Shown here: piece by piece, positions 7,260-9,184 of the stretch | Numbering within the stretch: position 1 is the stretch's first letter | Layout of the letters: each line of letters opens with the position of its first letter | NCBI GenBank assembly: GCA_964355135.1 | Contig: CAYHCG010000008.1 | Location: forward strand, 423 to 64,422 | Direction: 5' to 3' | From: Candidatus Woesearchaeota archaeon | Lineage (GTDB): Archaea > Nanobdellota > Nanobdellia > Pacearchaeales > GW2011-AR1 | DNA length: 64,000 nucleotides | Translations under genes and position numbers: made by a program | Notes under the pieces: generated by a model | What the model saw: the letters and a program-made list of their open reading frames with translations, nothing else | What the model was told of the DNA's origin: nothing | The model's database searches: none

Positions 7260-7538
7260 TTAAGGCAAATTTGCGCCGGGAATCAAATTAAGATTTTTAT
7301 AATAGAATACTGTAAGGATTATAACTATTATACTTAGAATTATTCCTATAATTGCCAGCATCTTGCCTTTTCTTCCCCATACGGTTGGATGACGGGACTG
7401 CTGTTTATTAGCAAATATCAAAGCGATGATTCCCAAGATTATTCCATTAATTGAAGCAAATACTATACTAAATATTCCTAAAACGACAGAAGCAATTCCA
7501 AAACTATTATCTGTACTTTTACTAACCTCTTTCACCAT
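7260..7538 (-). CDS. small membrane protein (two TM)
   Basis: ORF with two hydrophobic helices. Confidence 0.3.
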   Translation of the reverse strand: MVKEVSKSTDNSFGIASVVLGIFSIVFASINGIILGIIALIFANKQQSRHPTVWGRKGKMLAIIGIILSIIVIILTVFYYKNLNLIPGANLP

Positions 7539-7621
7539 TGAGTGTTAAAGAATATTGTTTTTATAAAGGTTTCTTTAGAAAGATAGAAAGATTTATATAT
7601 TATTAAATATTATATAATAAT

Positions 7622-7760
7622 ATGAAAGAAAAATTTGTTAAGATAGTAAGAAAGAATGGAGATAGCCTCGCGATCAATATCCCGAAGGAAGTGATAGATA
7701 TAATGAAGATAACTGAAGGAGATATAATCAGAGTTGAAATCGAGAAGGTTAAAGGATAAT
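7622..7760 (+). CDS. AbrB/MazE/SpoVT-type swapped-hairpin DNA-binding protein (antitoxin-like), 45 aa
   Basis: Translates MKEKFVKIVRKNGDSLAINIPKEVIDIMKITEGDIIRVEIEKVKG. Not in the ORF track because it is under 60 aa. Its stop overlaps the next gene's ATG. Confidence 0.5.
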
Positions 7761-8556
7761 GAAAAATTATGAAATCTTAAATAAATCTGACAGAAAAAGA
7801 CGGATAAAAATCCCTGAGAGACATAGTGAGCTTGCAGAGCTCCTAGGCATTTTAACAGGAGATGGTTTTATGAATTACTATCCTAAGAGACAGGCATATA
7901 TTATTGGAATTGCCGGAAACAAATTGAAAGATTTAGAATATCTAGAAAACTTTACCAGCAAATTAATTAAAAATTTATTCAATTTAAGCCCCAGATTATA
8001 TTTACATAAAAGCCAAAATACTGCAAGTTTAGTCTTTCGTTCTAAGAGCATTTTTTATTTTCTTGAAGAATGTGGTTTTCCGACTGGAAGAAAGGGAGAA
8101 ATATCAATTCCAAAATGGATCTTAGAGAATCCTGATTTCTTTAAAAAATTCATTAGAGGCGTATTTGATACAGATGGACACTTATGTTTAAAGAATAAAG
8201 AGGGTAAAAAATATCCTGTTATTGGAATAACTTCAAAAAGTAAATCTTTATTGTTTCCGATAAAAGAATTTTTAAATTCATACGGGATAACTTCTTATCT
8301 GGGGAGCCATAGGGCGGACACAAGTAATAAGAAATTTATCGTTAATAGGGTTCAGATAAGTGGTCAGAAAAATATAGGATTGTTCTTTGATCAGGTTGGG
8401 TCAAATAACCCAAGAAATTTAATGAAGTATATGGAAATGGCCCCGGGGGGAATCGAACCCTCTTACAACGAGCTTCAGTCGTTTGCATTCCCATTATGCT
8501 ACAGGGCCTCCTTGTCCTTGAAATTGAGAGAAGAGAAGACTTTTAAATGTTTTTAA
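7759..8556 (+). CDS. LAGLIDADG-family homing endonuclease (double motif). The 3' end may be read-through.
   Basis: Two motifs, LLGILTGDGFM and FIRGVFDTDGHL, both keeping the acidic residues. The last ~40 codons are antisense to a tRNA-Phe. Confidence 0.7.
   Translation: MKNYEILNKSDRKRRIKIPERHSELAELLGILTGDGFMNYYPKRQAYIIGIAGNKLKDLEYLENFTSKLIKNLFNLSPRLYLHKSQNTASLVFRSKSIFYFLEECGFPTGRKGEISIPKWILENPDFFKKFIRGVFDTDGHLCLKNKEGKKYPVIGITSKSKSLLFPIKEFLNSYGITSYLGSHRADTSNKKFIVNRVQISGQKNIGLFFDQVGSNNPRNLMKYMEMAPGGIEPSYNELQSFAFPLCYRASLSLKLREEKTFKCF
8438..8508 (-). tRNA. tRNA-Phe (GAA), no encoded CCA
   Basis: Hand-folded cloverleaf. Acceptor GGCCCTG/CGGGGCC (one G-U pair), D-stem GCAT/ATGC, anticodon stem AACGA/TCGTT, loop CTGAAGC (anticodon GAA, G37), T-loop TTCGATT. 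There is one A-C mismatch in the T-stem. A TATA-like ATTTAAAAG lies about 30 nt upstream. Confidence 0.5.
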
Positions 8557-8590: not shown

Positions 8591-9184
8591 ATGAAAACTA
8601 AGCTTATGTTTGAACTAAAAAGAAAGGCAGTTCATATTCTCGCCTTGCTATTTTTAGCAATCTATATTATCGTCCGGAGATATTCTGGGAAAGGCATTGC
8701 TTTATTATCTTTAACCTTGATTTTGATATTATTTTTAATTCTGGACTACTTTAGGATTATCAGAAAGAAAAAGATACCTTTCTTTCATATTTTCTGGAGA
8801 GAGAGTGAGAGAAGCAGATTAGGCGGCAATGTTTACTTTATAATGGGGACTGTAGTTTCTTTTGCGATTTTTGATTTTTGGATCGCTTTAACTGCCCTTT
8901 TGATGACTGTTTTTGGGGATACTGCTGCCGCGTTGTTTGGAATAAAATTTGGGAAGATATTTCTCAAAAGCAATAAAAACAAAACGTGGGAAGGCGCGAC
9001 CGCAGAGCTTGTAGTTAACTTACTTATCGGTTTATTACTGCTCCATAACTTAGCGGTCGCAATTGGCATGGCCTTGGCAGCAACTTTGGTTGAAACCTTC
9101 TTCACAAAGGTAGATGATAACTTTGCCGTGCCCATTATATCTGGATTTATTGGAGAACTTTTAAATTTGGTAATCAGATTATGA
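8591..9184 (+). CDS. CTP-dependent polyprenyl kinase / CDP-archaeol synthase-like membrane protein (CdsA/SEC59/CarS family)
   Basis: Multi-TM protein with a KTWEGATAE motif typical of the CdsA/dolichol kinase family. Confidence 0.45.
   Translation: MKTKLMFELKRKAVHILALLFLAIYIIVRRYSGKGIALLSLTLILILFLILDYFRIIRKKKIPFFHIFWRESERSRLGGNVYFIMGTVVSFAIFDFWIALTALLMTVFGDTAAALFGIKFGKIFLKSNKNKTWEGATAELVVNLLIGLLLLHNLAVAIGMALAATLVETFFTKVDDNFAVPIISGFIGELLNLVIRL

Follow-up and report, generated by a model that had tools for sequence, protein, structure and literature searches.

The 64,000-nucleotide (nt) stretch of DNA analysed here (hereafter the window; positions 423 to 64,422 of contig CAYHCG010000008.1, assembly GCA_964355135.1) carries, at the boundary of its tRNA-Phe gene, what is probably a free-standing homing endonuclease cassette with its own autorepressor, in a DPANN archaeon of the Hainich groundwater population. 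This reading draws on the anatomy of the locus, the presence/absence polymorphism of the cassette, a junction that is constant at the tRNA end, a match between nuclease clades and tRNA species, and an intact catalytic core. The cassette, which is bounded on one side by a divergent DUF4190 gene and on the other by the tRNA-Phe 3' end, combines a small AbrB-like gene with the gene of a LAGLIDADG nuclease. The features of the locus are the following.

7582 to 8437, plus strand: putative mobile cassette of ~855 nt, comprising promoter/operator, AbrB-like gene and the folded part of the LAGLIDADG gene.
7592 to 7599, plus strand: predicted TATA box of the cassette, TTTATATA, with a purine-rich GAAAG ahead of it; conserved in 10 of 10 AbrB-containing cassettes, aligned by eye.
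7609 to 7618, plus strand: perfect 10-nt palindrome ATTATATAAT in the interval between TATA box and start codon, a candidate operator on grounds of conservation.
7622 to 7759, plus strand: AbrB/MazE/SpoVT-fold protein of 45 amino acids (aa), a DNA-binding domain only (Pfam PF04014 and 20 homologues).
7759 to 8556, plus strand: LAGLIDADG endonuclease open reading frame (ORF) of 265 aa (Pfam PF14528, AlphaFold, Foldseek and 99 homologues).
8438 to 8508, minus strand: tRNA-Phe(GAA) without encoded CCA (ARAGORN and Rfam).
8540 to 8554, minus strand: predicted tRNA-Phe promoter AAAAACATTTAAAAG (minus-strand letters), 32-46 nt upstream of the tRNA 5' end.
7260 to 7538, minus strand: DUF4190 membrane-protein gene, the left flank (Pfam; synteny by tblastn and blastn).

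The window has a G+C content of about 0.27-0.44 and an archaeal gene content, and Hainich groundwater assemblies hold identical copies of both the AbrB-fold and the LAGLIDADG proteins. The TAA stop of the AbrB-like gene (7757-7759) and the ATG of the nuclease gene have one base (A) in common. At its other end, the nuclease ORF first overlaps the tRNA at codon 227 (8437-8439), traverses the entire tRNA gene and ends with a TAA stop (8554-8556) that touches the predicted tRNA promoter, with 39 codons plus the stop antisense to tRNA and promoter. The original prediction, a reading of the window made ahead of this analysis, had described just such an arrangement: a 45-aa swapped-hairpin (AbrB/MazE/SpoVT) ORF overlapping a LAGLIDADG gene that keeps both catalytic acidic residues, and whose ~40 last codons run antisense to a tRNA-Phe(GAA) gene at 8438-8508. 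The ORF list and Pfam confirm both genes, ARAGORN and Rfam both call the tRNA, and the two acidic residues, D35 and D139, are invariant in 19 homologues. There are no further LAGLIDADG or AbrB copies in the window, and both of its tRNA-Thr genes lack such a neighbour.

The cassette is an insertion/deletion polymorphism. The DUF4190 gene belongs to a conserved NFACT-hyp198-DUF4190 block, which served to identify the locus in other genomes, and 28 metagenome loci (loci from other assemblies are designated by L numbers) were fetched by their neighbouring NFACT protein instead of the nuclease. In the cassette-free loci L108 and L087, the gene order is NFACT, hyp198, DUF4190 and tRNA-Phe, with the tRNA oriented as in the window, and the spacer from the DUF4190 start to the tRNA-Phe 3' end measures 43 and 166 nt, respectively, versus 899 nt in the window. 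Similarly, L087 and L082 lack the cassette and L001 has it, and to either side of it the three loci are collinear. The left block of L001 consists of hyp198 and DUF4190 (plus a primase gene) and its right block of tRNA-Phe and RNase P RNA, as in L087 and L082, with identities of 67-70% in the left flank, 83-85% across tRNA and promoter, and 75-78% in the RNase P RNA beyond. The surplus of L001 over L082 amounts to ~860 nt, that is, promoter, AbrB gene and nuclease gene. The proposal in the original prediction that a selfish element has inserted at a tRNA locus is supported by these syntenic loci (L108, L087 and L082), which have tRNA-Phe and the same neighbours and no cassette. Two finer readings of the empty loci were given up. 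The best alignment of the L108 spacer would have put the left junction at 7559-7580, but 112 of 500 shuffles scored equally, and it was discarded. A 12-nt sequence of L082, ATATTATATAAT, considered as a relic of the cassette promoter, was dropped since it aligns equally well with the AT-rich flank of L001.

The two ends of the cassette behave differently. Similarity between cassettes (window versus L001, L002, L131 and L129, by blastn) begins at window positions 7583-7588, and the gene upstream of the cassette in L131 ends 42 nt ahead of the AbrB ATG, which bounds the left end; the cassette is therefore taken to span ~7582-8437, with an uncertainty of about +/-10 nt on the left. Its right end is the tRNA-Phe discriminator base in all relatives, regardless of the left neighbour, which varies from DUF4190 (window and L124) to a primase (L001 and L126), RNase P RNA (L002), an NTP-transferase gene (L131) or a giant Big_13 protein (L129 and L133). 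The slot between DUF4190 and tRNA-Phe also holds a PriS-like primase gene (PF01896) at L001 4981-5730, L082 3469-4278 and L126 2286-2996; in L126 the nuclease gene follows 4 nt after the primase gene, without AbrB and without a promoter of its own.

Since tRNA 3' ends are classical attachment sites (PMC4090602), the two genes might be cargo left behind by a larger integrative element, a virus or plasmid that used the tRNA-Phe 3' end, in which case the nuclease would not be the targeting factor, and the presence of a primase gene in the same slot in L001, L082 and L126 could be read in this way. We give this explanation very little credence. No integrase or recombinase gene occurs in the ~855-nt cassette, which has two ORFs only, and the slot is likewise without an integrase. 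A search within 2.5 kb for the terminal 24 nt of the tRNA, allowing up to 6 mismatches, found no direct repeat beyond the cassette in 29 of 30 cassette-bearing loci, the window included; L022 has a partial copy. Moreover, the 855-nt cassette by itself is the unit that is present or absent between L001 and L082, and it is the nuclease gene, not other cargo, that touches the tRNA in at least nine tRNA species. As a separate observation, the cassette-free loci L082 (3327-3345), L087 (1100-1160) and L083 (6300-6420) have, beside tRNA-Phe, incomplete inverted copies of its T loop and 3' end, for example GTTCGATTCC..A|TGGGAGTGGAG, and the tRNA-Phe gene is inverted relative to its flanks in L083/L092 and in L002. 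These copies and inversions may be fold-back repair scars of repeated breaks at the tRNA end.

Introns of rRNA genes and inteins are known sources of archaeal LAGLIDADG enzymes, and the nuclease of the window has the fold of these enzymes without their residence. Its 265-aa ORF matches Pfam LAGLIDADG_3 (PF14528) with E=3.5e-12 and contains the motifs LGILTGDG (D35) and FDTDGH (D139), whose aspartates are the invariant residues in the alignment of 19 homologues. A search of about 5.8 billion proteins returned 99 relatives, nearly all from DPANN metagenome bins, and among possible viral carriers IMG/VR has distant relatives only, 26-38% identical over part of the protein. The AlphaFold (AF2) model, built on the alignment of 19 homologues, has a predicted local distance difference test score (pLDDT) of 85.9 and a predicted TM-score of 0.81, is confident over residues 4-230 (to 8448), mostly >90, and displays the succession helix-strand-strand-helix-strand-strand-helix twice, that is, tandem LAGLIDADG domains. 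The top Foldseek matches are I-Tsp061I (2dch), intein endonucleases and I-DmoI (E=1e-11 to 1e-8), with a probability of 1.0 for I-Tsp061I, I-DmoI and PI-PfuI, and a PDB profile search places the nuclease with the same group, including PI-PfuI and TliVMA. Sequence and model thus point to a two-motif, monomeric LAGLIDADG fold with both catalytic aspartates. With I-Tsp061I, I-DmoI, PI-PfuI and the TliVMA intein it would share the two-domain fold, the aspartates and highly conserved target genes, at about 20% sequence identity. Those enzymes, however, reside in rRNA introns or inteins and are rendered harmless through splicing, whereas the window nuclease lies outside the mature tRNA, on the opposite strand, and needs no splicing. 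Rfam finds no intron in the window and the ORF is intergenic and antisense to the tRNA, so the nuclease is of the free-standing type. One truncated copy, of 172 aa, was seen in L033.

The family-conserved part of the nuclease ends at about residue 226, and what follows appears to be read-through into the tRNA. Residues 231-265 have a pLDDT <50 and are predicted to be disordered. The tails of the homologues begin GIEPP, GNRTP or ESNPA, or are missing, and correspond to the three antisense frames of the tRNA T arm. In the closest clade (16 loci), the position of the stop codon ranges from 1 nt short of the tRNA 3' end to 76 nt within the gene, and a short-form clade has its TAA 2-5 nt ahead of the tRNA. 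The window is different, as its stop lies past the tRNA 5' end, unlike the stops of its relatives, which range from 5 nt before the 3' end to 76 nt inside. In every case, the last residue of the conserved protein is encoded no more than a few codons from the tRNA discriminator base. The residues after the conserved part are, to judge from these sequences, set by the chance position of the first stop in the G+C-rich tRNA antisense. Because frame and length vary among homologues and the tail is predicted to be disordered, we read it as a read-through, an option that the original prediction had already raised. This also explains a recurring annotation artefact, LAGLIDADG proteins with odd C termini (GIEPP, GNRTP and ESNPA).

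The tRNA-Phe gene itself is atypical. Its Rfam match at 8438-8508 scores 58.3 bits (E=5e-10), against 62-70 bits for the tRNA-Phe genes of five relatives, and it is 71 nt long, with a GCAU/AUGC D stem and an A50.C64 mismatch in the T stem; the D stem is of the GCUC/GAGC type in 19 of the 20 other tRNA-Phe genes compared with it. The predicted promoter motif of the window also lies upstream of tRNA-Phe in L001, L002, L003, L082 and L087, which makes a promoter role plausible. tRNA-Phe genes that adjoin a cassette hardly differ from those that do not (2 positions between L002 and L082), which rules out immunity through changes in the tRNA body, and any immunity of a carrier allele must therefore stem from a disrupted flank. 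In many DPANN lineages the nuclease-adjacent tRNA-Phe carries one to three non-canonical introns, in the D loop, anticodon stem, variable region or T loop (L010-L014, L016, L021, L022, L024, L028-L031 and L040). Such multi-intron genes could be a habit of these lineages, or could be a reaction to a nuclease that recognises the tRNA gene at the DNA level.

The link to tRNA is a property of the whole nuclease family, not a one-off. With each GTDB species represented by one genome, a scan turned up 370 relatives, and the 80 best loci were kept. Counted conservatively, the nuclease ORF terminates inside or at most 50 nt from an intron-less tRNA in 34 of 78 loci (ARAGORN without introns), versus ~0.5 expected, with at least nine different tRNA species represented; the binomial probability of this is 4e-53, for loci that are phylogenetically non-independent. 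Many seemingly tRNA-less loci of the same clade do have a tRNA-Phe(GAA), interrupted by one to three non-canonical introns; six are recognised by Rfam, and the remainder were spotted by inspection from the CTGAAG anticodon loop, the T arm and matching acceptor halves. In a neighbour-joining tree, the clade of ~40 members that includes the window is associated with tRNA-Phe throughout, almost always in convergent orientation at the 3' end; these ~40 homologues convergent with tRNA-Phe are 33-64% identical. A clade from bacteria of the candidate phyla radiation (CPR) is associated with tRNA-Ser(CGA) throughout, on the same strand as the tRNA (L035, L056, L058, L065, L068, L072, L074 and L077). 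Other branches adjoin Thr, His, Arg, Asn, Leu, Gly and Pro/His tRNAs. In two loci, the ORF of a distant relative lies inside a tRNA intron, of 761 nt in L046 (5939-6793) and 718 nt in L053 (2379-3171), and ARAGORN finds a good cloverleaf once the intron is spliced out. Rfam detects no group I ribozyme in either intron, nor would there be space for one, as the ORF nearly fills the intron.

Several further details of these relatives deserve mention. The CPR nuclease stops 23-24 nt inside the 5' end of tRNA-Ser(CGA) in 7 of 8 loci and 48 nt inside in L035; if nuclease and tRNA were co-transcribed, RNase P processing would strip the stop codon from the mRNA. L050 (3-972) is listed alongside L046 and L053 as having a LAGLIDADG ORF within a tRNA intron, and the intron-bearing tRNA of L053 has the anticodon UGA and no long variable arm. 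Cassettes without AbrB share a conserved ~18-nt element, CACTGGACA-TGTC-CGCG/CGACG, 8-12 nt upstream of the nuclease TATA box (L011, L012 with two copies, L014, L015, L019, L020, L024, L027, L029 and L073), while degenerate GGACA repeats are found in L013, L021, L022, L026 and L030. The element is invariant relative to the local tRNA acceptor sequence and is a candidate operator or part of the homing site.

As for the small upstream gene, its product matches Pfam MazE_antitoxin (PF04014) over residues 9-41 with E=1e-6 and 29 bits (cut-off 24.7), and has 20 homologues, all of 45-49 aa, with a mean column identity of 75%. In every context checked (window, L001, L002, L005, L124 and L129-L135), the gene overlaps the start of a LAGLIDADG_3 gene, through a TAATGA/ATGA junction, and is followed by a convergent tRNA-Phe. 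On this sequence evidence, AbrB and nuclease genes form a dedicated, conserved two-gene cassette. AbrB accompanies two nuclease lineages that are mutually 33% identical (window versus L131), the AbrB proteins of which are 64% identical, and the promoter plus the 5' half of the AbrB gene reaches 87% DNA identity (window 7586-7683 versus L131 1387-1484). This high identity would reflect either an exchange of modules between cassettes or very strong constraint.

The region in front of this gene looks like a compact control region. The 40 nt ahead of the AbrB ATG are conserved, with GAAAG, the TATA box and the palindrome, and the last is conserved or nearly so in the window, L001, L124, L131 and L129. 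From archaeal promoter architecture, the spacing of the TATA box would place the mRNA start close to the AbrB ATG and so make the transcript leaderless, and the palindrome, in an AT-rich sequence, would be an operator of the AbrB-like protein placed over the start site. A dedicated autorepressor or controller of the cassette is the role that fits the AbrB-fold protein best.

The original prediction had seen in this pair a toxin-antitoxin-like arrangement, that is, an addiction module in which the LAGLIDADG protein is the toxin and the AbrB-fold protein a labile antitoxin, acting both as operon repressor and as neutraliser. Gene order, a one-to-four-base overlap and small size are indeed as in type II modules, the Pfam family is that of the MazE antitoxin, there is a weak match to TIGR02609 (doc_partner), and among the contexts checked the AbrB homologues occur exclusively with the LAGLIDADG_3 nuclease. 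Type II modules with AbrB-fold antitoxins such as MazE and VapB also have a small AbrB/SpoVT-fold gene that comes first and overlaps its partner, probably with autoregulation at an operator. However, 20 of 20 homologues measure 45-49 aa with the Pfam match at 9-41 and have no C-terminal tail that could bind a toxin; the partner belongs to no known toxin family and often comes without AbrB; and we know of no toxin family with a LAGLIDADG nuclease fold. AbrB is absent from L004, L006-L009, L122, L126, L127 and all more distant clades, that is, from most nuclease homologues, and in L003 the AbrB gene is internally deleted and the nuclease gene intact. The AbrB-fold protein is thus no antitoxin in the usual sense, being a DNA-binding domain only that can be lost while the nuclease persists; the predicted pairing finds no support, and we regard an addiction module as highly unlikely.

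The mechanism that we favour for the homing endonuclease cassette runs as follows. The nuclease would recognise DNA containing the conserved 3' part of the tRNA-Phe gene (acceptor/T arm) and the start of the trailer; it would cut cassette-free alleles in this region, and the cassette would then be copied in through double-strand-break repair. By landing immediately outside the mature tRNA, the insertion would leave the tRNA intact, making an intron or intein unnecessary, and by splitting the recognition site it would render the carrier allele immune. The last nuclease codons, rich in lysine, glutamate and asparagine codons, may supply a T-rich trailer for the convergent tRNA. Because the window cassette has no stop of its own, translation would continue through the G+C-rich tRNA antisense to the TAA in the tRNA promoter. 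The AbrB-fold protein would be translated first from a leaderless mRNA, with the nuclease translationally coupled to it, and would probably bind the conserved palindrome, holding nuclease expression low, in the manner of C proteins of restriction-modification systems or of the DNA-binding half of an antitoxin; convergent transcription with a strongly expressed tRNA gene may reduce it further.

Several points weigh against this picture. The target of the nuclease is deduced solely from the insertion position, and the operator role from conservation within AT-rich DNA. The left junction is not placeable to the nucleotide, the similarity between window flank and L108 spacer being non-significant. 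A neutralising contact between AbrB and nuclease would be compatible with the sequence data alone. Finally, empty loci contain no degenerate nuclease relics (tblastn E<=5), and nuclease divergence within the closest clade is similar to that of the adjacent NFACT and hyp198 genes, so that long vertical inheritance with losses would fit the distribution in this clade as well as repeated homing does. The last two points, together with intact ORFs that retain their catalytic residues at the same place in dozens of divergent DPANN lineages, which could also mean a host function, lead to another explanation. The protein would be domesticated, inherited vertically with tRNA-Phe and of service to the host, for example in the expression or maintenance of the tRNA-Phe/RNase P RNA locus, and empty loci would be simple losses. 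We consider this unlikely since related genomes without the nuclease at the same locus make the gene dispensable, while its sister clades show the pattern of a mobile element, as they occur in both CPR bacteria and archaea, beside other tRNAs in one orientation or the other, and also within tRNA introns. The convergent orientation speaks against co-expression with the tRNA, and the truncated copy of L033 also argues against a host role.

By analogy, the closest precedent for a homing cassette of this kind would be SegB of phage T4, a free-standing GIY-YIG homing endonuclease in a tRNA cluster whose 27-bp site contains a tRNA T-arm motif (PMC2330249). Like the window nuclease, SegB is free-standing between genes, beside tRNA genes, and present or absent among related genomes; a conserved tRNA-gene motif, that of the T arm, forms part of its site, and it spreads by break repair with co-conversion of flanks. 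It differs in fold (GIY-YIG, not LAGLIDADG) and host (a phage, not a cellular genome), is not fixed at an exact tRNA boundary, does not overlap a tRNA and has no partner DNA-binding gene. Cleavage is demonstrated for SegB and predicted for the window nuclease. For the AbrB-like gene, C proteins of restriction-modification systems may offer a functional analogy, being encoded by a small DNA-binding gene upstream of, and co-transcribed with, a mobile nuclease gene, with a palindromic operator at their own promoter and a proposed role in limiting or delaying nuclease expression; they are, however, helix-turn-helix and not AbrB-fold proteins, and the window has no methyltransferase. Integrases and the Ty3/TRE retroelements likewise find a safe place to insert in a conserved tRNA gene or at its edge, but they do so by site-specific recombination or by tethering to RNA polymerase III factors, and the window cassette has no attachment repeats. 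Within free-standing homing endonucleases, the fixed tRNA-boundary position, the family-wide tRNA specificity (DPANN and CPR) and the dedicated, putatively regulatory AbrB-fold partner are distinctive.

Homing endonucleases are thought to persist hidden in introns or inteins of conserved genes. The present family appears to use a third solution, which is to land outside a conserved RNA gene while recognising its invariant end, at no splicing cost, and this suggests a route of spread for such elements without intron or intein. The tRNA-boundary pattern is seen with nine or more tRNA species, in ultrasmall organisms with reduced genomes from two domains. It would be possible, although we propose it tentatively and hold it to be less than probable, that a large undescribed LAGLIDADG lineage of DPANN and CPR homes to tRNA gene boundaries, each clade being tuned to one tRNA species: Phe would be targeted at the 3' end, and Ser(CGA), Thr, His, Arg, Gly and Leu at the 5' end, while some members would have moved into the tRNA body and be spliced out by the archaeal machinery as giant introns of about 720-760 nt. 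If true, this would provide a concrete source for archaeal tRNA introns and a selective reason for multi-intron tRNA-Phe beside nucleases, as introns disrupt the DNA target, and the AbrB-fold partner would be the first case of a transcriptional controller dedicated to a homing endonuclease cassette. More generally, the intron-resident relatives and the multi-intron tRNA-Phe genes offer a handle on the origin of archaeal tRNA introns and on tRNA gene fragmentation, and the family offers natural enzymes with tRNA-gene specificities as well as a compact, putatively autoregulated nuclease cassette. The idea of Randau and Soll that introns break up a DNA target in tRNA genes is summarised in a 2014 review of tRNA introns (PMC4090602), which mentions neither homing or LAGLIDADG nor endonuclease-bearing archaeal tRNA introns. 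A literature search to which most subscription journals were closed found no paper joining LAGLIDADG with AbrB, and one of incomplete coverage yielded no account of LAGLIDADG genes that flank tRNAs in DPANN or CPR organisms; "undescribed" is therefore provisional.

Two minor observations concern the neighbourhood and a relative. In three related loci, an RNase P RNA gene (Rfam RF00373, 110-131 bits) lies directly upstream of tRNA-Phe on the same strand (L127 4151-4465, L003 7018-7338 and L087 184-523); the 64-kb window has no RNase P RNA match anywhere, and a CTP_transf_1-like gene (8591-9184) occupies the place that RNase P RNA has in relatives. The 23S rRNA gene of a related Pacearchaeota genome (L003 9237-12689) holds a group I intron (Rfam RF00028, 73 bits).

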